A program made the position numbers and the translations under genes. Shown piece by piece: positions 44,726 through 57,865 of a stretch of 64,000 nt of DNA. This DNA is from Lachnospiraceae bacterium (lineage in GTDB: Bacteria > Bacillota > Clostridia > Lachnospirales > Lachnospiraceae), in contig JAJQBS010000086.1 in the NCBI GenBank assembly GCA_021203145.1, positions 8,343 to 72,342 on the forward strand, given 5' to 3'. Within the stretch, counting starts at the first letter, position 1. Every line of letters starts with the position of its first letter. Under the pieces are notes generated by a model that saw only the letters and a program-made list of their open reading frames with translations, did not search any database and was not told where the DNA came from.

Positions 44726-45448
44726 CTATTTGCACGCCAGAGGCGTCATTCCCTTCAGAATTCTGCTCGGATTCTCCGACAGCCATAAATGAACAGATCT
44801 CTGCGAAAAATGCTCCGACAAATACCTGATCGCGCGTCCCAGATCATGGGAGCGAAGCCTTGTATCATGGGCGTCCGTCGCAATTATTTTTATAAGGCCG
44901 TCATTCAGCATGGAAACAGCCGCAATCCTGCTTTCCTCGCCAAAATCACCGAACAGGCTGCCCTGATTCATCTGAAGAACACATCCACATCCGGCAAGAT
45001 AGCCGGCGAACCGGATATCCTTCTGAATAAATACATAGCGCTCTGGGTGCGCCAGGACAACCCGGTAGCCCGCTTTATGTAACTCATCCAGTCTCTCGCA
45101 GACAATGTCCGGATCCTCCTCAAAGTCAAACTCCACGAGCAGATAATCAGTTCCGTTCAGTGAAAGAAGCTGGCCTGATTCCAGCAGCGCGGGAACCTTT
45201 TCATCCAGAAAAATTTCCATACCACTGTGCAGCTTTACCGGTATCCGCAGGTGCTCCAGCGTACTCTGCAGCCTGGAAAAGGCGATACGGTATTCGCCGA
45301 CCGTATAGGGATAAAAATTCCCATGGCTGGAAGCGACAATATGAAAAATACCGGAATCAGCCGCAATTTTGGCCATCTCCACGGCTTCCTCCATGGATTC
45401 GGCACCGTCGTCCAGTCCAGGGAGAATATGTGAATGTATATCAACCAT
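44726..45448 (-). CDS. CpsB/CapC PHP tyrosine-protein phosphatase
   Basis: MVDIHSHILPGLDDGA, LAHPERY, ATDAH. Confidence 0.93.
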   Translation of the reverse strand: MVDIHSHILPGLDDGAESMEEAVEMAKIAADSGIFHIVASSHGNFYPYTVGEYRIAFSRLQSTLEHLRIPVKLHSGMEIFLDEKVPALLESGQLLSLNGTDYLLVEFDFEEDPDIVCERLDELHKAGYRVVLAHPERYVFIQKDIRFAGYLAGCGCVLQMNQGSLFGDFGEESRIAAVSMLNDGLIKIIATDAHDTRLRSHDLGRAIRYLSEHFSQRSVHLWLSENPSRILKGMTPLACK

Positions 45449-45561: not shown

Positions 45562-46671
45562 TTATCCTTCGAATGCCTTTGCGATATCCTTCAGATAATG
45601 TGTCACAGAGAGCTGCTGCGGACAGACACTTTCACACTGGCCGCATTCCACACAGTCGGACGCCTTTCCATGTTCCCCTGTAAGCTCCGCATAGCGTTCT
45701 TTATACGCCAGATTCTCCGAATCCCCCAGTCTCGCGTTATAAAGCGCGAAATAATCCGGGATGGCAATGTTCATCGGGCAGCCCTCCATGCAGTAGCGGC
45801 ACGCGGTACAGGGAATCTTCGCCGCCTCATGAATCATCTCCACAACCTGTGCAAGCGCCTGCTTTTCCGTCTCGCCCAGAGGCTCCATATCCTGCATATA
45901 CCCGCTGTTATCAAGCATCTGCTCCATGGAAGACATCCCGCTTAAGACAATCATCACATGTTCCAGGCTCGCGGCAAAACGAATCGCCCAGGACGCGTTC
46001 GACCAGTCCGGATGGATCGCGCCAAGCAGCTTTTCCGCTTCCGGCGGAAGCTTCGCGAGCGTGCCGCCCTTGACCGGCTCCATGACGACCACTTTCTTGC
46101 CATGCTTAACGGCAGTCTCATAGCATTTGCGGGACTGCACCTTCGGGTTCTCCCAATCCAGATAATTCAGCTGAAGCTGCACAAACTCCGCCTCCGGGTG
46201 ATCCGTCAGGATCCGATCCAGGACTTCGGCCTTATCGTGAAAAGAAAATCCGATATGGCGGATCTTCCCCTCTGCCTTCTTGCGCGAAATAAAATCAAAA
46301 CAGCCCAGGCGCTGTACATTATCGTAGCGTTCACCGCTCATCGCGTGCAGCAGGTAATAATCAAAATAATCCTCTCCGGTCTTCTCCAGCTGCTCGTTGA
46401 AAATGCGTTCCAGATCTTCCTCCTTTTCCAGATGAAACAGAGGAAGCTTTGTCGCAATCGTGTATTTCTCACGCGGAATGCGTTTCACGAGCACATCCTT
46501 TACCGCGCGCTCACTCTCATGGTCATGATACATATAAGCGGTGTCAAAGTAGGTAAACCCCCGCTCCAGAAATACATCCGCCATCCGGCAGACCTGCTCT
46601 TTGTCAATGCTTTTCTCATCCTTCGGATCCAGAAGCGGCAGCCGCATCAGGCCAAATCCAAGCTTTCCCAT
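45562..46671 (-). CDS. Aldo/keto reductase with C-terminal 4Fe-4S domain
   Basis: KLGFGLMRLP, FDTAYMY, CTACRYC, CVECGQCESVCPQ. Confidence 0.92.
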   Translation of the reverse strand: MGKLGFGLMRLPLLDPKDEKSIDKEQVCRMADVFLERGFTYFDTAYMYHDHESERAVKDVLVKRIPREKYTIATKLPLFHLEKEEDLERIFNEQLEKTGEDYFDYYLLHAMSGERYDNVQRLGCFDFISRKKAEGKIRHIGFSFHDKAEVLDRILTDHPEAEFVQLQLNYLDWENPKVQSRKCYETAVKHGKKVVVMEPVKGGTLAKLPPEAEKLLGAIHPDWSNASWAIRFAASLEHVMIVLSGMSSMEQMLDNSGYMQDMEPLGETEKQALAQVVEMIHEAAKIPCTACRYCMEGCPMNIAIPDYFALYNARLGDSENLAYKERYAELTGEHGKASDCVECGQCESVCPQQLSVTHYLKDIAKAFEG

Positions 46672-46829
46672 ATTCTATATCCTCCTTGTTGTAAAAACGT
46701 ATCATCAACTTCAGGTTAAATTCTGTCTACTCTAAACTATACCCCGAAACTGTTCACAGTGCAAGTGGAAATTTTATCGTAAATTTCCATCCGGCGGATT
46801 CGTCACCGGCCACTAATCACCAATCACTG

Positions 46830-48215
46830 TCACTCACTGTTTTCAGGACGCGCCGGCTTCCTGTTTCTCTGGAGCCCGAATTTTTCCCGGAATGCCAGGA
46901 AAAGGATCACGCAAATGACCGCCGAAAGGGTGGAACCCGCAGGCGCGGCCAGACCCATGGGGAACAGCGTGTCTGGAAAGAGCACCGTGGCAAGGTAGGC
47001 CCCCGGAATCCGCACGCACAGTACGGAGATCAGATTATGCGCAAAGGAAAAGCCGGACAGTCCGTACGCGCAGAAAAAACCGCTGAAACAAAAATGGATC
47101 CCCGCCATCATGCAGTCAAAAGAGTAGGAGCGCAGGTACTGCCCGCCCAGCACGTACACCGTTTCCTCCTTCGTAAACAGATGGACAAACTGCTCAGGCA
47201 GGATCTGGCAGGTCACAAAGCATAAAAATCCGAACGATACGGTTACCGCCATCGCGCAGTACAGTGTCTTCCTTGCGCGGTCATGCAGACCGGCTCCCCG
47301 GTTCTGCGCGGCAATCGCGGAGACGGAAGAAAGCATCGCGGAGGGCACCAGAAACAGGAAGCTGATGATTTTTTCTACAATCCCCACTGCGGCCGCCACA
47401 TCCACCCCGCGGCGGTTCGCGATCATCGTGATTACCAGAAACGAGATCTGGATAAACCCGTCCTGGCAGGCCACCGGGACGCCGACCTTGAGCAGATCTG
47501 AAAGGACTTCCCTTTGCGGGCGGAAATCCTCCCTCTTCATCCGGATCCCGCCCCTGGATGTGCCGGCACTTTTCTTCTTTAAATATAGCAGTGCGAAAAC
47601 GACGCTGGCCGCCTGGGAAATCACCGTGCCGTACGCGGCTCCCGCCGCCTGCATCCCAAGTCCTCCGATGAGCAGGAAATCCAGGGCAATATTAAGCACA
47701 CAGGCCACTCCGACAAAATACATCGGGCTTCTGGAATCACCCATTCCCCTGTACACGCAGCTGATCACATTGTATGCCGTGATAAAAGGGATCCCCGCAA
47801 AGCAGATGGTCAGATACTCTCTCGTCTGTGAAACCGCCTCCTGCGGCACCGACATCACGGAAATAATGCCATCCCTGAAAAACAGCAAGGCGGCCACAAG
47901 CAGAACCGCGCCTGCCGCAAACAGCGTAATCGTATTCCCAATTATGGTGGAAGCGCGCCCGGTCTGCCTGCTGCCGATTGCCACGCCCAGGCCTACGGTC
48001 GCCCCCATTGCCAGGCCAACAATCATGACGGTCAGCATATGCATGACCTGGCTCCCGATCGACACAGCCGAAATCGCGGCGGCGCCATTGAACTGTCCTG
48101 TCACATACAGGTCCACCATCCCATAAAATGTCTGTAAAAAACAGGAAAGAAGGTACGGCAGGGAAAACCGCAGCAGCACCTTCCAGACACTCCCTTTCGT
48201 CAGATCCCTTTCCAT
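46830..48215 (-). CDS. MATE-family efflux transporter
   Basis: DLTKGSV, RGMGDSRSP, NIALD; about 12 TM segments. Confidence 0.92.
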   Translation of the reverse strand: MERDLTKGSVWKVLLRFSLPYLLSCFLQTFYGMVDLYVTGQFNGAAAISAVSIGSQVMHMLTVMIVGLAMGATVGLGVAIGSRQTGRASTIIGNTITLFAAGAVLLVAALLFFRDGIISVMSVPQEAVSQTREYLTICFAGIPFITAYNVISCVYRGMGDSRSPMYFVGVACVLNIALDFLLIGGLGMQAAGAAYGTVISQAASVVFALLYLKKKSAGTSRGGIRMKREDFRPQREVLSDLLKVGVPVACQDGFIQISFLVITMIANRRGVDVAAAVGIVEKIISFLFLVPSAMLSSVSAIAAQNRGAGLHDRARKTLYCAMAVTVSFGFLCFVTCQILPEQFVHLFTKEETVYVLGGQYLRSYSFDCMMAGIHFCFSGFFCAYGLSGFSFAHNLISVLCVRIPGAYLATVLFPDTLFPMGLAAPAGSTLSAVICVILFLAFREKFGLQRNRKPARPENSE

Positions 48216-48229
48216 TTTGAACTCCTGAT

Positions 48230-48328
48230 TCTGTCCTCTGCCAGTTTCCCGGACTTGTCCTCTGTCAATGTCAGTTTCCTGGATTTATCTTCTGTCAATG
48301 TCCAATTTCCAGGATTTATCTTCTGTCG
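48230..48328. repeat. About 3 copies of a 30-31-nt degenerate tandem repeat
   Basis: TCTGTCAATGTCAGTTTCCTGGATTTATCT-like units spanning the ttcA stop codon. Confidence 0.7.
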
Positions 48329-49746
48329 ATTCTTTTGATTGTTTCTTCTTCGTTCCCATGCTCTATCTTTTCATCTTCGTTCCCGTGCTCTTTCCTGGGC
48401 TTTGCGCAGCTTTCCATTGCCCGTCCCGTCTCATATCCGTCCAGAAAATGGTGCTTCACACCGTCCTGTTTCCAGGAAATGACTGTGTTCAGGTTTACAT
48501 TTTCAGCACTCCTGAAAATATTGCTCTCTACCTCCGGATCCCGTTCGGCCAGAACCGCGATCAGCTGCTTCACCTCGGCGCGTTTGGAGCCCTTTTCCGT
48601 ACCGCCGCAGGAAGCGCAGTTTTCTGTGAATCGGCAGGCGCACTGAATGAAATGCAGGTCGTTGTAATCCGCCCAGCGGATAATATCCTTTTCCCGGATC
48701 AGATACATCGGGCGGATCAGCTCCATCCCTTCAAAATTGTTGCTGTGCAGCTTCGGCATCATCGTCTGCATCTGTCCGCCATAGAGCATGCCCATCAGGA
48801 TTGTTTCAATCACGTCGTCATAATGGTGCCCCAGGGCAATCTTGTTACAGCCAAGCTCCTTCGCGTGGCTGTAAAGATACCCCCGGCGCATCCTCGCACA
48901 CAGATAGCAGGGAGAAGTCTCTGGTTCCACAATGTTAAAAATCTCTGAGCGGAATACCGTGACCGGGACATCCAGCAGTCTGGCGTTGTCTAGTATCCGC
49001 TGATAATTCTGCTCATTGTAGCCCGGGTTCATCACCAGGAAAACCAGTTCAAAGTTTCGTTTTCCATGACGGTACAGCTCCTGGAACAGCTTTGCCATCA
49101 ACATGGAATCCTTGCCCCCGGATATGCAGACCGCGATCCGGTCCCCATCCTGAATCAGGTCGTATTCCTTTATCGCCTTCGTAAACCGGCACCAGAGCTC
49201 CCTGCGGAACTTTTTGATGATGCTGCGCTCCGCCTGCCGGCATCGCGTGATATACGACGGAGCAGCGCTGCTGTACCCGATGCCATCCGGTGTGGCAGCA
49301 CTGCTGTCTGTAAAAACCAATGCATCATCATTTGGGAATATACGCTCTGGTGTCGCTTCTCTGCTCCGGGAGATCCGCTTTCTCTTTGTTCCCTTTTCCG
49401 GTAATGTCCGCTCTCCCTTTGCCGCCTTTTCCGATGATGTCCGTTCACCCATAGTCTCTTTCAGCCGGTACCGCAGATATTCCCGAAATCCTCCTTCAAC
49501 GCTGTACGCATGAATTCCTTCCTCTTCAAGCTCACAGACAAGCTCATCACTCTCATCACCGGTATAGCACAGAAAAAAGAGCGGGCAGTCTTTCGGGAGT
49601 CTCTCCCTGTTTTCACGAATCTGCGATATATCCATATGAATCGCCCCCGGAAAGGTTCCTTTATCAAATTCCTTCCGGGAGCGCATGTCTATGACCGCTC
49701 CTGTACAGCTTAAATGTAACAGCTCTTCCACCGTAATTGTCTTCAT
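48316..49746 (-). CDS. ttcA: Rhodanese-TtcA (tRNA 2-thiocytidine synthase-like) fusion
   Basis: N-terminal rhodanese (IDMRS..EFDKGTFPGA, CYTG), SGGKDS, CYLC, GHHYDD, CACRF..NCASC. Confidence 0.8.
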   Translation of the reverse strand: MKTITVEELLHLSCTGAVIDMRSRKEFDKGTFPGAIHMDISQIRENRERLPKDCPLFFLCYTGDESDELVCELEEEGIHAYSVEGGFREYLRYRLKETMGERTSSEKAAKGERTLPEKGTKRKRISRSREATPERIFPNDDALVFTDSSAATPDGIGYSSAAPSYITRCRQAERSIIKKFRRELWCRFTKAIKEYDLIQDGDRIAVCISGGKDSMLMAKLFQELYRHGKRNFELVFLVMNPGYNEQNYQRILDNARLLDVPVTVFRSEIFNIVEPETSPCYLCARMRRGYLYSHAKELGCNKIALGHHYDDVIETILMGMLYGGQMQTMMPKLHSNNFEGMELIRPMYLIREKDIIRWADYNDLHFIQCACRFTENCASCGGTEKGSKRAEVKQLIAVLAERDPEVESNIFRSAENVNLNTVISWKQDGVKHHFLDGYETGRAMESCAKPRKEHGNEDEKIEHGNEEETIKRIDRR

Positions 49747-49763
49747 GATCCAATGGCTCCCAT

Positions 49764-49865
49764 GTCAGTACACTTTCTCTGTCAGTACACTTTCTATGTC
49801 AATACACTTTCTCTGTCGGTACACTTTCTATATCAGCATACTTTCTCTATCAGTACGCTTTCCCT
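49764..49865. repeat. 6 x 17-bp direct tandem repeat
   Basis: Consensus GTCAGTACACTTTCTCT; units start at 49764, 49781, 49798, 49815, 49832 and 49849. Confidence 0.9.
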
Positions 49866-50872
49866 GCCAGAATCTCTTTGTAATCCTTCAGATTCTTTTC
49901 CAGCAGTGTCGGCGTGTCCAGGTGATAAGGGCATTTCGACTTACACTGATTGCAGTGCAGGCATTCCTCGATTTTCATCATCTTCGTCTGCATTTCGGGC
50001 GTCAGCTGCGCGTCAGAGGGCGCCCGGCGGATCATCAGAGACATCCTTGCGCAGTTGTTGATCTCAATTCCGGCGGGACATGGCATACAATACCCGTAGC
50101 CCCGGCAGAATTCTCCCATCAGCTCCTGGCGGTCTTTTTCAATCAGAGCGCGAATATTCTCCGTCATTACCGGAGGACAGACTATGTAAGAGAGGAACTC
50201 CTCCAGCTCGCTCATCCGCTGTACACCCCAGATCGGGAGCACATTGTCAAACTGCGACTCAAACGCATAGGCCGCCGCGGAATTCGTAATCAGGCCGCCG
50301 GAGAGCGCCTTCATCGCAATAAAGCCCATATCCTGCTCCTTACAATCAGCCACCAGTTTTTCGTCCTCCTCGGTCGCCAGATAGCAGAACGGAAACTGAA
50401 GCGTCTCATACAGGCCGGACGCAACGGCCTCTCGCGCCACATTCTGCCGATGGTTTGTGATGCCGATATGCCGGATTTTCCCCTGCTCTTTCGCCTCCAG
50501 CATGCACTCATAGACACCGCTCTCATCGCCAGGCTTCGGGCAGAAGGACGGGTTGTGAAACTGATAAATGTCCAGATAATCCGTTTTCAGATTTGTCAGA
50601 GTCGTTTCCAGATCCTTCCAGAAATTCTCCGGCGTCACCGCTGCTGTCTTTGATGAAATATACACTTTTTCACGCACATCCGCAAGTGCCAGCCCCAGCT
50701 TGTGCTCGCTGTCCGTATAAAAACGCGCCGTATCGAAAAATGTCACGCCGTTTTCATATGCCCTGCGGATAATTTTTACCGCATCCTCATCACTGACCCG
50801 CTGGACCGGCAGTGCGCCGAATCCGTTTTTATTTGTCACAATCTCTGTCTTTCCAAGTCTTACTGTGTCCAT
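49850..50872 (-). CDS. Aldo/keto reductase with Fe-S domain (second copy)
   Basis: MDTVRLGKT, FDTARFY, CRGYGYCMPCP (first Cys pair altered), CLHCNQCKSKCP. Confidence 0.88.
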   Translation of the reverse strand: MDTVRLGKTEIVTNKNGFGALPVQRVSDEDAVKIIRRAYENGVTFFDTARFYTDSEHKLGLALADVREKVYISSKTAAVTPENFWKDLETTLTNLKTDYLDIYQFHNPSFCPKPGDESGVYECMLEAKEQGKIRHIGITNHRQNVAREAVASGLYETLQFPFCYLATEEDEKLVADCKEQDMGFIAMKALSGGLITNSAAAYAFESQFDNVLPIWGVQRMSELEEFLSYIVCPPVMTENIRALIEKDRQELMGEFCRGYGYCMPCPAGIEINNCARMSLMIRRAPSDAQLTPEMQTKMMKIEECLHCNQCKSKCPYHLDTPTLLEKNLKDYKEILAGKAY

Positions 50873-50918
50873 CCTTCTCCTCCTTCGTCTCTTTGACCAA
50901 ATGAATGTCTCCGCCTGA

Positions 50919-52128
50919 CTAATTTCCCCGCTCCGCCACAAATGGCTTCAGCTCCTTATACAGCTTCTGGTCATGACCGGCCTGTTGATATTTCTTTTTC
51001 AGATTTAACCTCGGCCTTTCTCCCCTTTGCCGTTGTATCAGGTATCTTCCCAACAACACGAAGGGCACAGCCGGCATCAAAACCGCATGCTTCTCGCACG
51101 GGGGCCAATGCTCCCTGCAGGCACTCCCCAACACCTTGATAAAGCTGGTAACTCTATTCGAAGAATATGGATCATTAAATAACCGTTCCCCGTATTTTTC
51201 AACCTTTCTCCCAAAGTTTCCTTCTTTCAGTATCTGGTCTATCACTTTTTGCGCCGTTTCACTGTCATACCGCATCGCCCAGGGCGCATTTTCTTCCGGC
51301 AGCCGCAGGTAATCCACACAGGCTCTTGTCATAAGTCCTGTGAAGGTAAGCAGGCCAAACGCCGAAAGCTGCGGCTGCAGCTTTGCCCACAGGGTGTCAT
51401 CCATCTTTTTTTTCTACAAACACCGCCCAGTCACAAAGCTGCCGCAATCCCAGGCCGCTGGTCGTAAAGTGTTCCAGCTTGTGCAGAATCAAAATAATGG
51501 CCTGATGCTCATCCGACGGAACCGGCAGGCCGTCCATAAACTGCCGTCTGTCGATTGCATCGCTAAAATAATTTCTAATTCTCCCCAGAATTTCAGAGTT
51601 ACCATCAAGGAACAATCCGTTCGGTTCTTTATGAACCTCCACAGCAATCTCGTCCTTGTGCAACGTCATATGACAATGGTGTTTTTCGTCCAGAACATCG
51701 CCATAACCGTTAGCCTGGAGGGCTTTCACGGCCTCCATCTGCTGCTCCGGCCTTACAAGCAAGTCGATGTCGCCCATAATGCGCAGAGACGGTTGTGGAT
51801 AATTGGCAGCTGATGAACTGCCTTTCAGTATCACGCAGGGAATGGACGCCGCAGTAAGGAGCTGTATCACCTGCTCCTGCTCATACAGGAGCTGCTCATT
51901 GTTCATGATATGCCGGAACGAATCCTGCTCCCAGCGAATCCCCACATCATCAGGGACGGAGCCCCGTTCCTCATCAGAAAGCGTATCCCAGATCAGAAGC
52001 GAAAGCGCCTGATTTGACGCCTCATGATAAAGAGCGGACCAGTCCACAGCGGATGGTTCAAAATCCGCAGGTGTGCCAAATAAAGCCCTGCCCGTAAGCT
52101 GTAATAAGGCCTTTTCTGTTTTGTTCAT
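50919..52128 (-). pseudogene. Nucleotidyltransferase (NTP_transf_5 type) split by a +1 frameshift in an A8 run
   Basis: ILKGSS..YPQPSLRIMGDIDLLV, EVH, GLRQLCDW; 8 T on the + strand at 51406-51413; removing one base joins ...VEKK-MDDTLW into a single ORF. Confidence 0.8.
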
Positions 52129-52213: not shown

Positions 52214-54529
52214 CTATACATCCTGCATGCCTCCATTTTGTTCCCCGACCGGATTTTTTCCTTCTTTGCCCTGTATCATTTCCTCAACCGGATTTTTTCC
52301 TTCTTTATCCTGTATCATTTCCTCAACCGGATTTTTTCCTTCTTTGCCCTGTATCATTTCCTCAACCGTAATCTCTGAGTGTTCAAAGACCAGTCTCTTG
52401 CCGCAGATCTCCATCGCCGCCGGTCTGTGGGTCACGATCAGCACCGTCCGGCCGCCCATTTCTTTCAGGTTCTTCAGCAGCCTGTGCTCCGTATCCTCAT
52501 CCAGTGCGGATGTCGCTTCGTCCAGTAGAAGGACAGGAACGTTCCGGTACACAGCCCGCGCTATCGCTATTCTCTGCATCTGTCCCTCAGACAGGCCGGC
52601 TCCCTTTTCGCCGAGAACCGTATGATAGCCGTTCGGCAGCTCTCTGATAAACTCATCCGCGCAGGCAATTTTGCAGGCCTGCTCCACCTTTGTCTTCTGC
52701 TCCTTCGTATATGGGGCGGAGTGCAGAAAGTCCACAGCCTCATAAATACTGCCGGACATCAGCATATTCCCCTGAGGAACATAGGAGAACCATCTTCTTG
52801 TTGCAGGGGATATCTCTATCCCGCCATTCGCATACAGTCTGCCGGACACAGGTGAATATATGCCAAGCAGGATTTTCAGCAGCGTACTCTTGCCGATGCC
52901 GGAGATACCGGTCAGTGCGACAATATCGCCTTTTTCTATATCAAACGTCGCACCGCTGATGACTTCTTCCTCGCCGTCATCATAGATGAATGTCAGGTTT
53001 TCGGCATGGATTCCTGTGAAGTCAGGCAGTTCTTTTGAGGCTCGTTCCTTCGGCAGCTTCTCTATCTCAATCAGCCGCTCCGCGGATGCGAGCATGGAAT
53101 AATACTGCGGTACAAAACCGGAGATGTTGGCGAACGGGCTTCTGATCTGGCTGACCAGCTGCAGCACAGCGGTCATCGTCCCATAGGTCAGTGTGCCGTT
53201 TAGTATGCCGAACCCGCACCAGACTAAGCCAAAGAGATAGCTGCCCTGCATCACGCCGCCGAAGCCGAGGTTGCAGATATTGGAGAAGGTTCTTCTCTTC
53301 ATACGGGCTTTCTTATGCGCTGCGGCTTTTTCCTCTGTTCTGGCTGACGCCATTTCTTCCGCTTCAAAGCCTTTCAAAATTAAAAGGCTCTCTACGGATT
53401 CCTGCAGCCAGGAGCGGAGCTTCCCGTCTGTCTCCTGTACTTCTTTATGCAGGCTTTTCATTCTGCGGCGAAAGAGGAACGTCACACCCAGCATAACAAG
53501 CCCGCCAACAAGAAAGATACTGCCAAAACGCCAGTCAAGCACCATCAGGATAACCAGTGCGCAGACAAGCTGAACCGCCATCGACGCCACACCGGGAATA
53601 ATTTCCGTCGCATAATCCGCTACAATCTTCACATCACTGGTCATGCGGTTTTGAAGCTCTCCCGTATGGTAAGCTTTCAAACCGCTGTAGGTGCCATGAA
53701 GGATGTTGTCATAGGTATGCTGTTTCAGCCTGTTTTCCAGTGAGGCTCTTGTCGACTCGTCCACCTGCCGGATCACGGCACGGAGGAGCAGCTGTATAAG
53801 TATAATTCCGAGGAATACGCCGCTCCATTGAAGGAATTCGCTCCTGTCAAGGGCGACAGCGTAATCAATCGCATTGCGCATCACAAGCGCGAGAATAACC
53901 GAAAAAAAAGCCGTAACACCCGTACATGCAGTCAACAGCAATATTCCTGCGAGACTGCCCTTCACCATTTTTGCAACCCAGCCGAGGGAGGAATCGCCGA
54001 GAATGCGTTTGCCCACAGAAACAGCGCCTGCTGTCATTTTGTGTCTGAGCAGGCGCAGGGGATAGATAAAATTCCAGAGCCAGACATACAGACAGTACCG
54101 TGTATCTGTCGTTTTGATTTCCCGTTCTCCCCACAGTCTGCCCTTCCCTCTCCAGCAGCTCTCCATCACACCTTTTACAGCGGAGAGCGGCACCCGCTCA
54201 ATAGCGAAGGTATTATCGCCGCGGATGAGACACACGTCTCCGCCAAAGCCAATTATGCGGTGGAGCACCTGGGTTCCGTCGGGTCGGACATACAGCACCA
54301 CATCATTCTTTTGAGGTCTGCCCTCCAATTTTCGAATCAGCACATGGGAGGACCAGGTATAGAGAAGCGGCCGCATACTGACACCCTTAATGGGAATCAC
54401 AATAAAGCCGGAGGCTTCCAGCTCATCCAGCTTGGTTGTCTGTGATGTTTGGTTTTGCCCTTCGCTTCGGGTCTGTGATGTTTGGTTTTGCCCTTCACTC
54501 TGGGTCTGCGACGCCTGCGTCTGTTCCAT
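52214..54529 (-). CDS. S24/S26 serine peptidase fused to an ABC exporter (TMD+NBD)
   Basis: KGVSMRPLL, DVVLY, VLHRII, RGDN; then TM domain, GISGIGKST, LSEGQMQR, LLLDEATSALD; single uninterrupted ORF. Confidence 0.88.
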   Translation of the reverse strand: MEQTQASQTQSEGQNQTSQTRSEGQNQTSQTTKLDELEASGFIVIPIKGVSMRPLLYTWSSHVLIRKLEGRPQKNDVVLYVRPDGTQVLHRIIGFGGDVCLIRGDNTFAIERVPLSAVKGVMESCWRGKGRLWGEREIKTTDTRYCLYVWLWNFIYPLRLLRHKMTAGAVSVGKRILGDSSLGWVAKMVKGSLAGILLLTACTGVTAFFSVILALVMRNAIDYAVALDRSEFLQWSGVFLGIILIQLLLRAVIRQVDESTRASLENRLKQHTYDNILHGTYSGLKAYHTGELQNRMTSDVKIVADYATEIIPGVASMAVQLVCALVILMVLDWRFGSIFLVGGLVMLGVTFLFRRRMKSLHKEVQETDGKLRSWLQESVESLLILKGFEAEEMASARTEEKAAAHKKARMKRRTFSNICNLGFGGVMQGSYLFGLVWCGFGILNGTLTYGTMTAVLQLVSQIRSPFANISGFVPQYYSMLASAERLIEIEKLPKERASKELPDFTGIHAENLTFIYDDGEEEVISGATFDIEKGDIVALTGISGIGKSTLLKILLGIYSPVSGRLYANGGIEISPATRRWFSYVPQGNMLMSGSIYEAVDFLHSAPYTKEQKTKVEQACKIACADEFIRELPNGYHTVLGEKGAGLSEGQMQRIAIARAVYRNVPVLLLDEATSALDEDTEHRLLKNLKEMGGRTVLIVTHRPAAMEICGKRLVFEHSEITVEEMIQGKEGKNPVEEMIQDKEGKNPVEEMIQGKEGKNPVGEQNGGMQDV
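52248..52368. repeat. 3 x 39-bp coding tandem repeat (EEMIQ(G/D)KEGKNPV)
   Basis: Units start at 52248, 52287 and 52326. Confidence 0.92.
54438..54512. repeat. 2+ copies of a 33-bp coding repeat (QT(Q/R)SEGQNQTS)
   Basis: Units start at 54438 and 54471, with a partial unit at 54504. Confidence 0.85.
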
Positions 54530-54570: not shown

Positions 54571-54849
54571 CTATTCCGTCAAAAACCCTGCGTCCGCCAT
54601 TTCCTTTATCATCGACTTCACATCGTCGGCGATATATGCACGGTCTTCCCCGGTCTTTGCGCCGCTCTTTTCCGCAAGTATATTCACAATTTCCTCTTCG
54701 GTCCTGCCGTCGGCAATGCCCTCCCAGATAATTTTGCCGGTCTCATTGAGCTTGACCATACCGTGAAACTCACGGCTGGCCTGTCCTGTGGCAACCACCA
54801 CATACTTGCCTGCCACCTTGCGGATAACAAATCCTTTTTTAACCTTCAT
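54571..54849 (-). CDS. PqqD-family RiPP recognition element (RRE)
   Basis: MKVKKGFVIRKVAGKYVVV...LNETGKIIWE...DVKSMIKEMADAGFL; GGGAGG RBS (alternative ATG at 54855). Confidence 0.92.
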   Translation of the reverse strand: MKVKKGFVIRKVAGKYVVVATGQASREFHGMVKLNETGKIIWEGIADGRTEEEIVNILAEKSGAKTGEDRAYIADDVKSMIKEMADAGFLTE

Positions 54850-54952
54850 TTCCATATTCCTCCCGTTTCGTTTTATTGTCCCGGCATGCGCCAGAGTTTA
54901 TTAAATTCTATATTGAAAATATCCATTCCGCTTCCTCTCGCTTTTCATCTTT

Positions 54953-55231: not shown

Positions 55232-55357
55232 TCACTCGTCGTCCTCTAAGACTGGAAGATCAGGGCCTTCAACCGCTCCTTCGCCTAAATTTTCACGCGC
55301 TACAACAAAAACGTTCGTCTCATACCGAATGATTTCCAATTCAAGTTTTTCATACAT
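55232..55357 (-). CDS. Array peptide I, 41 aa: MYEKLELEIIRYETNVFVVARENLGEGAVEGPDLPVLEDDE
   Basis: AGGAG RBS; family leader. Confidence 0.85.
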   Translation of the reverse strand: MYEKLELEIIRYETNVFVVARENLGEGAVEGPDLPVLEDDE

Positions 55358-55373
55358 AATGATTTGTCTCCTA

Positions 55374-55496
55374 TCAGTCATCGTCCGGCAAAACTGGCTC
55401 AGGATCTGTTGAGGTTCCACTTTCACCTACGCCAGACACAACAGCAAAGGGCATTTTCTCATAACGGATAACTTCCAGCTCATGTTTCTGGTACAT
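55374..55496 (-). CDS. Array peptide H, 40 aa: MYQKHELEVIRYEKMPFAVVSGVGESGTSTDPEPVLPDDD
   Basis: Purine-rich RBS (GAGAG); family leader. Confidence 0.85.
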   Translation of the reverse strand: MYQKHELEVIRYEKMPFAVVSGVGESGTSTDPEPVLPDDD

Positions 55497-55548
55497 AATT
55501 GCTCGTCTCTCAACTATCTATCATCACGCAAAGCTGGCTCGAAATCTG

Positions 55549-55680
55549 TCAGCCACCCCAACTTTCTTCTTCATCTTCTTCAACTTCTTCCTCTTCTTCA
55601 ACAGACAGCTCTGGACCACTAAAAGCCCAGGCACTGTTTTCCTCAAAGCTTATAAGCTTCATCTCAAATTTTTCATACAT
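55549..55680 (-). CDS. Array peptide G, 43 aa: MYEKFEMKLISFEENSAWAFSGPELSVEEEEEVEEDEEESWGG (probably frameshifted near its end)
   Basis: AAGGAG RBS; an alternative frame continues GWLTDFEPALRDDR* to 55514. Confidence 0.8.
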   Translation of the reverse strand: MYEKFEMKLISFEENSAWAFSGPELSVEEEEEVEEDEEESWGG

Positions 55681-55698
55681 AATGTCTCCTTTTACCTT

Positions 55699-55818
55699 TC
55701 AGTCATCATCTGGAAGTACTTCCATTTCTTCACCAGATACAGTTCCCTGATCTACTCCTTCGGCAAACACAGCGGTTTCGTCGAAGCTTATAACATCTAG
55801 CTCGTGTTTCTTGTACAT
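55699..55818 (-). CDS. Array peptide F, 39 aa: MYKKHELDVISFDETAVFAEGVDQGTVSGEEMEVLPDDD
   Basis: AGGGGG RBS; family leader. Confidence 0.85.
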   Translation of the reverse strand: MYKKHELDVISFDETAVFAEGVDQGTVSGEEMEVLPDDD

Positions 55819-55831
55819 ACCGTCATACCCC

Positions 55832-55960
55832 CTATGAATCCGTCAGATCCGGCCCAATGCTGTCATAACTCCACCCAGTATCGCCGCCATCAGTATAACT
55901 GCACACTACAAAGATATTCTCTTCGTAGAGGTTAATATCCATCTCGTGCTTCTGATACAT
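55832..55960 (-). CDS. Array peptide E, 42 aa: MYQKHEMDINLYEENIFVVCSYTDGGDTGWSYDSIGPDLTDS
   Basis: AAGGGGTG RBS; family leader. Confidence 0.85.
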   Translation of the reverse strand: MYQKHEMDINLYEENIFVVCSYTDGGDTGWSYDSIGPDLTDS

Positions 55961-55973
55961 ACCTGTCACCCCT

Positions 55974-56096
55974 TTACTCAACCACATAGGAAGGGTCGTA
56001 GCTTTCTACTTCCATGTTGCTTCCGTCTTCAACAATCCATGCACATGCCTCATTCTTATCAAACAGTATTACTTCAATTTCGTGTTTTTGGTACAT
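55974..56096 (-). CDS. Array peptide D, 40 aa: MYQKHEIEVILFDKNEACAWIVEDGSNMEVESYDPSYVVE
   Basis: GAGGGGTG RBS; family leader. Confidence 0.85.
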   Translation of the reverse strand: MYQKHEIEVILFDKNEACAWIVEDGSNMEVESYDPSYVVE

Positions 56097-56110
56097 AGCC
56101 ATATCACCCC

Positions 56111-56242
56111 TCACTCGTCGCTGATATCCGGATCGACGGAATGAACGACGATTCCGCCACTCTCATCTCCGCTTACCCCAAGATCCGCAAACACACAATT
56201 TTCATCAAACAATATTATCGACATAATATGCTCTGTATACAT
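56111..56242 (-). CDS. Array peptide C, 43 aa: MYTEHIMSIILFDENCVFADLGVSGDESGGIVVHSVDPDISDE
   Basis: GGAGG RBS; family leader. Confidence 0.85.
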   Translation of the reverse strand: MYTEHIMSIILFDENCVFADLGVSGDESGGIVVHSVDPDISDE

Positions 56243-56285
56243 CTTATTGCCTCCGCATCATGAATACGCATGTTCTGTTTCCAAC

Positions 56286-56417
56286 CTATATATCGCTTAC
56301 TTCCGGTTCCACACTGAACTGATCCCACCCGGTACTTCCACCGTCTGATTTATCAGCATTTACAAACATATTCTGCTCATCAAACTCGATAACTGTCAAC
56401 TCATGTCTCTCGTACAT
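56286..56417 (-). CDS. Array peptide B, 43 aa: MYERHELTVIEFDEQNMFVNADKSDGGSTGWDQFSVEPEVSDI
   Basis: GGGGAG RBS; family leader. Confidence 0.85.
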   Translation of the reverse strand: MYERHELTVIEFDEQNMFVNADKSDGGSTGWDQFSVEPEVSDI

Positions 56418-56446
56418 ATTCGCGTCTCCCCGTATTGCGTCCAAGC

Positions 56447-56575
56447 TTATATGTCGGATGGTTCGTCCGGGATGCTGTACTGATCTTCTCCTTCTTCGCC
56501 ATCAGATGCCCAGGACATAACATAAGCATCCTCTCCGTCAAACTCTGTAACACTCATTTCGTGTGTATCATACAT
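56447..56575 (-). CDS. Array peptide A, 42 aa: MYDTHEMSVTEFDGEDAYVMSWASDGEEGEDQYSIPDEPSDI
   Basis: GGAGG RBS 8 nt upstream; family leader. Confidence 0.85.
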   Translation of the reverse strand: MYDTHEMSVTEFDGEDAYVMSWASDGEEGEDQYSIPDEPSDI

Positions 56576-56791
56576 CTCATATTCCTCCACAGCCTGAGCG
56601 ATAATATGCCTCTCTTTCCGTAACCCTCCGTATCCTCAGTTCAGGTCTATTATATATAAAGCCTTTTCCCGCAGATGTACGGCATTTGGCATAAAAACAG
56701 CACACCTTCTACCCAAAAAATGCCTGCAGCCTCCGATAAAGTCTGGCAGTTTCGAGTTATTTCGGGTATCCTTCTTGTACAGAAACCTTTC

Positions 56792-56899
56792 GTTTCTCGT
56801 ATTGTCGAATATGTCTCTGAACGCAACCTCACATATGACGTTATATCACAAGGGGCTCGGAAATACAAGATGTTTTTCTGTGAAACATTTACTAAAATT
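56792..56899 (-). promoter_or_regulatory. 108-bp promoter module driving the array (inverted duplicate of 62419-62526)
   Basis: TTGTAT-N17-TATAAC (56868-56840); 87/108 ungapped identity to the right-hand copy by hand alignment. Confidence 0.7.
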
Positions 56900-56942
56900 G
56901 TCACAGGTCTCACCCTGACCAGATTTACATTTTTTTTGCCAC

Positions 56943-57647
56943 TCACTTCATGTCATTTATTCCCCTGTACGCCACAAGAGCCGCCTCACGTGACATATTA
57001 CATTTCAAATTAAAAATCGGCACCTCACGAATCAGCCTGTCCATCAGGTCAAGCTGTTTTATCATCTGCTCAACATCCTCTGGCAGAAGTACCTGATTGA
57101 ATATCTTATCAAGAACTTTATCTGTATCTGCAAGAGCAATCTCATTTTTCGCCCCACGCTCCAACAGGCATATCGCTTTCAGCGGGACAATTTCCGCACA
57201 CCCGAGCCGTTCCTTACCGTGCCAGGGTGTGCCGCAGACATAGAATTTATCGTTCATAAGCCTAATCATCGGCTTGTCGCCATTTATTAATACTGCCCGA
57301 TTTCCAAATTCCTGCATCCAGTAATTTGCATGTGTGGATTTTCCCGTCCCGCCGGGAGCAGTGAACACATAACCCTCGCCGTCTACAGCAACAACAGCGG
57401 CATGAAGAAGAAAGGCATCGTATTGAAGCATTCCTATACTCACCTTGCGGTACAGGCAGTTGCTTTCACAGTCAGCAAAGCTAAATTCGCCCTTTAGCCT
57501 GTCGTATTCTTCCTGAACCTCTTTTTTCGTGGCAGACACAATAAAGAGAGGAGAAGCCGACACGATGTGTTCCTCACAATTCCACTGGGAAAGGGGATAC
57601 TTGTTATTTATACCGACAGGAATTCCAGCTATATTCAGCGTTGTCAC
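56943..57647 (-). CDS. HPr-kinase-like P-loop protein (ScmC/lasso-kinase-like)
   Basis: GGAGG RBS and GTG start; LLHAAVV, TAPGGTGKST, INGDKP, GTPWHGKE. Confidence 0.75.
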   Translation of the reverse strand: MTTLNIAGIPVGINNKYPLSQWNCEEHIVSASPLFIVSATKKEVQEEYDRLKGEFSFADCESNCLYRKVSIGMLQYDAFLLHAAVVAVDGEGYVFTAPGGTGKSTHANYWMQEFGNRAVLINGDKPMIRLMNDKFYVCGTPWHGKERLGCAEIVPLKAICLLERGAKNEIALADTDKVLDKIFNQVLLPEDVEQMIKQLDLMDRLIREVPIFNLKCNMSREAALVAYRGINDMK

Positions 57648-57673
57648 AATGCATCCTCCTTGCCATAAAGTAC

Positions 57674-57710
57674 AAATCCCCTGCAACCAGCCTCAAGCGG
57701 CTACAGGGGA
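57674..57710 (-). terminator. Terminator after solo peptide K
   Basis: 35/37 identical to 55036-55072; both differences lie in or beside the loop. Confidence 0.75.
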
Positions 57711-57736
57711 CAATTACTTTTCAACAGTCAGATTTT

Positions 57737-57865
57737 TTAAATCTCAACGTCAGGAATGCTGTCAGCAGACCAGTCATCGTCATCTCCTTCATTATAACTA
57801 CACACAACAGAAGCGTCCTTTTCACTAATATAAATAACTCTCATTTCGTACTTTTCATATAACAT
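57737..57865 (-). CDS. Solo family peptide K, 42 aa: MLYEKYEMRVIYISEKDASVVCSYNEGDDDDWSADSIPDVEI
   Basis: AAGGAGG RBS overlapping the surface-protein stop codon; shares VVCSY and W-S-x-D-S-I-P-D with peptide E. Confidence 0.88.
   Translation of the reverse strand: MLYEKYEMRVIYISEKDASVVCSYNEGDDDDWSADSIPDVEI

Follow-up and report, generated by a model that had tools for sequence, protein, structure and literature searches.

The question raised by this locus is whether one open reading frame (ORF) that runs from a peptidase-like domain into a complete ATP-binding cassette (ABC) exporter encodes a real protein, and what such a protein would do. The ORF encodes 771 amino acids (aa) and lies on the minus strand, at positions 52214-54529, of a 64,000-nucleotide stretch of Lachnospiraceae bacterium DNA (assembly GCA_021203145.1, contig JAJQBS010000086.1, positions 8,343 to 72,342), hereafter called the window. 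We found that it is a natural in-frame fusion of an LppS-type and an LppD-type gene, two members of the pathway for linear polyphosphorylated peptides (LPP) described in Paenibacillus alginolyticus (Popov et al., Nat Commun 2026; PMC13381572). LppS, a 151-aa SipW-like peptidase, removes the leader of LppA only with LppB, a RiPP recognition element (RRE; RiPP, peptide made by the ribosome and then post-translationally modified) of the PqqD type, and its activity is abolished by S29A, H68A or D93A; LppD is the MsbA-like pump of the cluster (PMC13381572). The fused product is probably a bifunctional peptidase-exporter of an LPP-like RiPP pathway, in which the RRE would guide removal of the leader on the cytoplasmic side of the membrane, coupled to export.

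The ORF is divided into the following segments, with scores taken from AF2 models (pLDDT, predicted local distance difference test; pTM, predicted template modeling score), Pfam and Tandem Repeats Finder (TRF):

52214..54529, minus strand: LppS-like peptidase plus LppD-like ABC exporter in one 771-aa ORF (stop-free translation)
54437..54529, minus strand: disordered N-terminal tail rich in Q, T, S and E, aa 1-31 (pLDDT below 50 for residues 1-31)
54104..54436, minus strand: predicted Ser/His peptidase domain of S24/S26 fold, aa 32-142 (hhalign, AF2, Foldseek, invariant residues)
54377-54379, 54260-54262, 54215-54217 and 54197-54199, minus strand: predicted catalytic codons S51, H90, D105 and E111, respectively
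54038..54103, minus strand: aromatic amphipathic helix with the conserved motif YxxYxxxWNxIYPxR, aa 143-164 (hydropathy and alignment)
53951..54037, minus strand: basic linker and elbow region, aa 165-193 (AF2 helices 143-177 and 181-225)
53060..53950, minus strand: six-helix transmembrane domain (TMD) of a type I ABC exporter, aa 194-490 (PF00664, E 1.1e-27; six long helices in the model)
52355..53017, minus strand: nucleotide-binding domain (NBD), aa 505-725 (PF00005, E 2.1e-25; ATPase motifs intact)
52241..52368, minus strand: disordered C-terminal tail repeat, 39 bp x 3.3, encoding VEEMIQGKEGKNP three times (TRF, 93% match)

Because the direct family scores of the N-terminal domain are all below threshold, its identity had to be approached through profile and fold evidence. 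The profile of the window family aligned with LppS over 103 columns (hhalign probability 97.8%, E 7.9e-13), and a gapless MAFFT alignment pairs S51, H90, D105 and E111 with S29, H68, D87 and D93 of LppS. The profile of 51 stand-alone relatives matches PDB chains of bacterial signal peptidase I (SPase I) and SEC11, with H90 at the position of the general-base Lys of bacterial SPase I (LHRII versus VKRII of 4nv4 and SpsB). The AF2 model of residues 30-180, built from 52 sequences, reached a pLDDT of 92.1 and a pTM of 0.82 and showed the S24/S26 β-barrel fold with the Ser nucleophile in the GxSMxP box; its best PDB matches in Foldseek were SipA of S. pyogenes (4n31), SpsB of S. aureus, the C-domains of LexA and SPase I of E. 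coli. Conservation was measured on a set of 33 fused proteins (660 to 819 aa, from NCBI, Logan and JGI assemblies), 31 of which are full length and share 66 to 96% identity with the window protein. S51, H90, D98, D105 and E111, the last six residues past D105, are invariant in 31 of these 31, and the equivalents of the catalytic residues in 51 of the 51 stand-alone relatives. Since the hhalign result, the fold model and the invariant residues agree despite the weak family scores, we place the N-terminal domain as a predicted SipW-type Ser/His peptidase and relative of LppS. The earlier note on this DNA, made from the sequence alone, had called a serine peptidase of the S24/S26 type; profile, fold and residue conservation bear this out, and the direct family scores do not. 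None of the 33 fused relatives carries a precomputed Pfam entry over the peptidase domain, so that annotation names the ABC part only, and their public names read just "ATP-binding cassette domain-containing protein".

The exporter half is complete. Pfam assigns ABC_membrane to residues 194-465 and ABC_tran to residues 526-674, and the Walker A (541), Q-loop (584), LSEGQ (646), Walker B (667, with E671) and H-loop (699) motifs are all intact. In Foldseek, the full-length model found PCAT1 (6v9z) as the top match, and also MsbA, TmrAB and TM287/288. A strong GGAGG motif lies about 10 nt upstream of the ATG of the fused gene. Two genes with an internal start inside the ORF were considered and ruled out, as neither the M165 nor the M188 ATG is preceded by a Shine-Dalgarno-like motif. 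The earlier note's description of the ORF therefore holds throughout: peptidase motifs (GVS51MRP, VLH90RI and GD105N) joined in one frame to a complete TMD-NBD, no internal ribosome-binding site before the TMD, and short repeats at both termini.

Both of these repeats are genuine tandem arrays in TRF, the N-terminal one comprising 33 bp x 2.2 at 54438-54508 (92% match), and the C-terminal residues 728-771 are modeled with pLDDT below 50. The N-terminal tail varies in length and sequence among the fused homologues; in P0010 it consists of a repeated NSAAEENNCAGK. The copy number of the C-terminal repeat differs between close strains: P0002, 96% identical overall and 99% over the N-terminal domain, has a single copy of the 13-aa unit, and beyond it a different, apparently frame-shifted tail. 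In three fused homologues (P0010, P0020 and P0025), low-complexity stretches of tens of residues are inserted in the NBD, past the Walker A region and before the Q-loop. It seems that hypervariable disordered segments are typical of the fused clade.

To describe how widely the fusion occurs, we used the best 80 loci of a survey of GTDB species genomes. In-frame fusions were found in 21 of these 80, all with at least 60% identity, and their hosts are exclusively metagenome-assembled genomes of uncultured Lachnospiraceae, Clostridiales or Oscillospiraceae. The earlier note had left room for all relatives being two separate genes; the survey instead gave 21 species-level genomes with a single in-frame ORF. 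Three further loci are broken fused copies, and the remainder are stand-alone genes of 127 to 156 aa (two cut by a contig end). A separate ABC gene lies directly downstream in only 4 of the 80. In the broken copies, the ORF ends after about 381 to 385 aa in L040 and L041 (the latter being G021:C182) and after 51 aa in L021, with the ABC part carried on in a different frame; pseudogenization or faulty assembly may account for them.

Among 24 genomes of the same genus, one has a fused but frameshifted copy and another (G002) shows the two-gene state. The order in G002 is PqqD, a 144-aa peptidase and a 583-aa ABC gene, whose product is 45% identical to window residues 183-725, and the peptidase stop and the ABC start overlap in ATGA; thus the two genes are translationally coupled and would become fused by a one-base change. 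The peptidase domains were placed in a quick maximum-likelihood tree (IQ-TREE, with Shimodaira-Hasegawa-like approximate likelihood ratio test [SH-aLRT] support), where a single clade (SH-aLRT 98) takes in every Clostridia fusion together with 16 stand-alone genes. Nested within this clade are three groups of stand-alone genes, at nodes with 84 to 94% support, and the ABC gene is absent from the loci of these nested genes. One such ABC-less locus (L005) is collinear with the window at 76 to 78% DNA identity through PqqD, the peptidase up to position 54038 (codon 164) and the nucleotidyltransferase, with the 1.9-kb ABC part cleanly missing. These comparisons place the probable fusion joint at about residue 164. 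W184, in the linker, is invariant across the fused proteins, and conservation thus spans the joint. The simplest history suggested by the tree would be that the fusion arose once and that the pump was later lost several times, with only moderate support at the nested nodes.

The window holds every partner gene of an LPP pathway, that is, precursors, kinase, RRE and nucleotidyltransferase, all on the minus strand like the fused gene:

54571..54855, minus strand: PqqD-family RRE, the LppB equivalent, 41 nt upstream of the fused gene (PF05402, E 1.9e-12)
50919..52128, minus strand: NTP_transf_5 nucleotidyltransferase, the LppN equivalent, in two ORFs, 51397-52128 and 50919-51404 (PF14907, E 2.5e-42)
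56943..57686, minus strand: HprK/ScmC-like kinase, the LppK equivalent (TIGR04249, E 2.1e-7, below the cut-off; TIGR04352 weak)
55232..57865, minus strand: ten short acidic precursor genes, in a span that includes the kinase (common N-terminal motif)

The position of PqqD is kept in three fused loci (L016, L017 and L018) and in two others (L005 and L008). In L016-L018 the order is kinase, small peptide, PqqD and then the fused gene, with NTP_transf_5 nearby. The window kinase had no match in a Pfam scan; it shares 29% identity (E 5e-41) with the product of the ScmC-labelled gene that adjoins the fused gene of L016. The presumed substrates are about 40 aa long and share the N-terminal motif M-Y-x-x-H-E-L-x-V-I-x-(F/Y)-(E/D)-x. 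Their Y-to-F/Y spacing (+10) is the same as that of the YxxP peptides beside the fused genes of L017 and L018, the two most divergent fused loci, whose neighbour peptides, MKKYEAPKAEVVKFDN... and MKKYQAPLAQVLNFDN..., keep the canonical YxxP. The position of the RRE-contact Pro of YxxP is taken by His (or F, L, Y) in the ten window peptides and by Ala in the G002 peptide. No conserved GG, GA or GS site follows the leader in the ten peptides.

Several features of these neighbourhoods are recorded here as side observations. The split NTP_transf_5 region of the window is collinear with the intact 402-aa gene of L005 (78% DNA identity over 1214 bp), and the split may reflect a frameshift, phase variation or a homopolymer error. 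A radical SAM gene stands directly downstream of the fused gene in L017 (8437-9540) and L018 (7098-8189), with none in the window, and this points to one more tailoring reaction in part of the clusters. In L001 (8481-9434), L004 (3909-4796) and L008 (3198-4142), the next gene after the stand-alone peptidase, or after the separate ABC gene, encodes about 295 to 317 aa; these three gave no Pfam family, and NCBIfam, run on two of the three, gave nothing significant. In the window, the stretch between the cluster and a CpsB/CapC capsule phosphatase gene, which lies about 7 kb downstream (44726-45448, minus strand), encodes two aldo-keto-reductase/4Fe-4S proteins, a rhodanese-TtcA-like PP-loop protein and a MATE transporter (45562-50941, minus strand). 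A gene for a 1449-aa surface protein is also nearby (57878-62227).

What follows is our inference as to which peptides are cut and where, on which side of the membrane the peptidase lies and how the product reaches the pump. The acidic precursors of about 40 aa would be bound by the PqqD-type RRE encoded upstream, through the leader motif Yxx(H/P)...(F/Y)(E/D)x, and would probably be modified by the neighbouring HprK/ScmC-like kinase. The RRE would then offer the leader-core junction to the N-terminal peptidase domain, and, judging from the F-E-T|A site of LppA, cleavage may occur after residue 14 or thereabouts. The peptidase would be held on the cytoplasmic face by the aromatic amphipathic helix and by its covalent link to the first transmembrane helix (TM1), and the cleaved core would be passed to the homodimeric ABC transporter for ATP-driven export. 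Coupled cleavage and export of RRE-delivered peptides had already been suggested in the earlier note; the LppS homology, the invariant residues and the upstream PqqD gene, in the window and in three other fused loci, now support that suggestion, and the coupling itself we infer.

A number of results weigh against this proposal. On the N-terminal 192 aa, the Pfam S26 family (PF10502) scores 16.1 bits with a cut-off of 22.9, TIGR02227 scores 30.4 bits with a cut-off of 47 and TIGR02228 16.2 with a cut-off of 51.85. The peptidase domain is only about 21 to 29% identical to LppS, and its acidic member is Glu where LppS has Asp, with the hhalign alignment offset by one column there. Compared with the LppA leader YxxPxVLxHQxIxFETxxS, the window precursors keep Y and F-E with the spacing three residues shorter, and they have neither the Pro of YxxP nor a conserved Ser at core position 3, the site that LppK phosphorylates in LppA. 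The full-length AF2 model (pLDDT 70, pTM 0.48) is too uncertain to dock the peptidase on the pump. The exporter role of LppD itself was assigned by homology (PMC13381572). Finally, close relatives (60 to 80% identical) have the set of kinase, PqqD, peptidase and nucleotidyltransferase without an adjacent ABC gene, which indicates that export by the pump is not obligatory for the pathway.

These relatives also fit a reading in which the fusion is only a tether, that is, the peptidase is genuine and the ABC half exports some other cargo (a lipid-linked or polysaccharide intermediate of the capsule locus, or another peptide), the fusion serving to anchor the peptidase at the membrane or to co-regulate it. 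The ABC half matches MsbA, CydD and other general exporter models, with scores far below their cut-offs, and no peptide-specific family, and the CpsB gene of the window agrees with the report that LPP clusters occur inside capsule loci (PMC13381572). However, an ABC gene belongs to the core set of genes that co-occur in LPP clusters (PMC13381572), and in the unfused locus of G002 the peptidase and exporter genes are translationally coupled. Furthermore, the fusion persists in at least 21 species, and fusions of the same kind are found in at least two further lineages, represented by P0127 and by two Bacteroidota proteins. Taken together, we regard a mere tether as unlikely.

The second alternative concerns the side of the membrane on which the peptidase works. 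The stand-alone relatives end with the segment equivalent to residues 143-164 (YCLYVWLWNFIYPLRLLRHK), in which Y145, Y148, W152 and R159 are invariant in the 31 fused proteins. If this helix spanned the membrane, the peptidase would lie outside, as in SipW and Sec11, and would trim exported peptides or the giant surface protein. SipW-type enzymes and SipA, the best fold match, are indeed extracytoplasmic, an extra span before TM1 is still compatible with a cytoplasmic NBD, and the surface protein gene lies near the cluster. With six transmembrane helices and a necessarily cytoplasmic NBD, one extra span would place the peptidase outside the cell; however, the N-terminus is hydrophilic, there is neither a signal peptide nor an N-terminal transmembrane segment, and no segment before residue 190 reaches transmembrane hydropathy. 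The helix has a mean Kyte-Doolittle hydropathy of only 0.87 and a high hydrophobic moment of 0.82, versus a hydropathy of 2.27 for TM1. The required RRE partner and the kinase are cytoplasmic, and LppS cleaves a cytoplasmic MBP-LppA-TrxA substrate in E. coli and is active in the membrane-free PURE system (PMC13381572). An outside peptidase conflicts with these facts and is very improbable, so the helix is better read as a presumptive interfacial membrane anchor, with the peptidase predicted to be cytoplasmic. Such an anchor would also explain why LppS was too insoluble for crystallization (PMC13381572).

The N-terminal domain might also be catalytically silent and serve to dock the RRE-peptide complex, with cleavage taking place elsewhere. 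Dead peptidase domains of the HlyB type, which are C39-like, are an established precedent, and both the family scores below the cut-offs and the Glu in place of the LppS Asp would suit such a module. However, degenerate domains usually lose such residues, whereas here all 82 sequences, the most distant at about 35% identity, keep Ser, His, the Asp of GDN and Glu, and we saw no second protease gene in the cluster. A silent docking domain is therefore highly unlikely. That the fusion is an assembly or sequencing artefact, by a lost stop or a frameshift between two genes, is scarcely credible: the genome is a 124-contig draft, the adjoining nucleotidyltransferase gene is split and broken copies occur in L021, L040 and L041/G021, but full-length fused proteins were recovered independently 31 times, in NCBI, Logan and JGI assemblies, in-frame ORFs occur in 21 species genomes, and the linker is conserved, as in the invariant W184.

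The bifunctional peptidase-exporter was then viewed against the wider peptidase family, which is very large. A profile search of 1.84 billion cluster representatives gave 12,920 proteins at E ≤1e-3 and 3,862 clusters (50% identity) at E ≤1e-10, mostly of 140 to 160 aa. Among the top 150, the peptidase is joined to PqqD (P0111 and P0122), to NTP_transf_5 (P0199 and P0217, and in the reverse order in P0204) and to ABC transporters (P0009, P0103 and P0127). The last of these, P0127, is a 684-aa protein collinear with the window protein at 39% identity. Several more proteins of 217 to 243 aa have the peptidase domain at the C-terminus and are candidate PqqD-peptidase fusions. Fusions among RRE, peptidase, nucleotidyltransferase and pump argue for physical contact of these proteins, and those of the peptidase with PqqD and with the nucleotidyltransferase may help explain the role of the nucleotidyltransferase in LPP pathways. 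We put forward tentatively, as an idea with slightly less than an even chance, that a membrane-bound assembly of RRE, peptidase, nucleotidyltransferase and exporter channels the modified precursor directly from cleavage to export, and that the peptidase-exporter fusion represents a third, serine-type class of peptidase-containing ABC transporter (PCAT), arisen at least twice (in Clostridia and in Bacteroidota) and reverted by pump loss in some lineages.

A natural single-chain peptidase-exporter provides genetic evidence, of the Rosetta-stone kind, for physically linked cleavage and export. It also sets a topological constraint, namely that, with a cytoplasmic domain, the conserved aromatic helix of LppS-like enzymes could not cross the membrane just once. 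Moreover, the fused protein is a practical target for cryo-electron microscopy, as an RRE-guided, serine-type counterpart of PCAT1. LppS-type peptidases have been counted among RiPP leader peptidases only since 2026 (PMC13381572). The main text of the LPP paper does not discuss a fusion of peptidase and exporter (PMC13381572), and our full-text searches of the literature accessible to us found none.

Among known systems, the PCATs (PCAT1, ComA, LanT/NukT and CvaB) are similar in their arrangement, an N-terminal cytoplasmic leader peptidase on a type I ABC exporter, and in the logic of cleavage followed by export. They are papain-like Cys/His enzymes of the C39 family that act on double-glycine leaders without an RRE, whereas the window protein is an S24/S26-type Ser/His enzyme, associated with an RRE and with peptides that have no GG. 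Pfam gave no Peptidase_C39 match in the fused protein even at E ≤10. With no C39 domain and no double-glycine leaders, the fused protein is PCAT-like in its working but stands outside the PCAT class. The earlier note had held that known peptide-cleaving exporters use C39; this is incomplete, since a fusion of a lasso leader peptidase with an ABC transporter has been published for cochonodin I of Streptococcus suis (Hegemann et al. 2021, cited in PMC10885120). According to PMC10885120, this protein also joins an RRE-dependent leader peptidase to the ABC exporter of its pathway, and lasso peptides are a sister RiPP class that has RRE, kinase and nucleotidyltransferase types in common with LPP; its peptidase, as described there, is a B2 transglutaminase-like cysteine protease rather than a serine enzyme. 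Neither Pfam nor NCBIfam found a B2 transglutaminase-like domain in the fused protein.

With SipW and Sec11 (MEROPS S26B), the window domain shares the GxSMxP, HR and GDN boxes, an acidic residue six positions after GD, and His where bacterial enzymes have their general-base Lys. Those enzymes are anchored in the membrane at their N-terminus and cleave Sec signal peptides on its outer side, whereas the window domain is anchorless, predicted to be cytoplasmic and below the family cut-offs. Closer in architecture are two Bacteroidota proteins labelled "signal peptidase I", WP_013444635.1 (Paludibacter, 747 aa) and OIP81682.1 (743 aa), which are listed without discussion in sequence similarity network cluster 8 of Supplementary Data 1 of the LPP paper (PMC13381572). 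Both have an N-terminal SPase I-like domain followed by an ABC TMD, with an RRE adjacent. Their peptidase domains are only 16 to 20% identical to that of the window and fall outside the Clostridia clade on long branches, so that the Bacteroidota fusion is likely an independent event. The earlier note's view of the fused protein as a non-C39 novelty therefore holds in part: the domain is indeed not C39, but the LPP peptidase and exporter genes were published in 2026 and the two Bacteroidota fusions are in the supplement of that paper.

The closest system is LPP itself. In both, the peptidase is a SipW-like Ser/His/acidic enzyme with no N-terminal transmembrane segment and with a hydrophobic C-terminal helix, and the precursor leaders appear related (Yxx(P)...F-E-x). 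The window contains a SipW-like peptidase, a discrete PqqD RRE, an HprK-like kinase together with NTP_transf_5, and an MsbA-like exporter in the C-terminal 580 aa of the fused protein. It differs from LPP in that peptidase and exporter are one polypeptide, in the acidic residue (Glu), in a leader that is three residues shorter with His for Pro and is followed by no conserved Ser3, in having ten precursors rather than one to three, and in its host, an uncultured member of Clostridia rather than of Bacilli. Therefore, we may conclude that the window protein belongs functionally to the LPP system as a distant member; the fused gene is not a new kind of system but adds a natural peptidase-exporter fusion to a known one.

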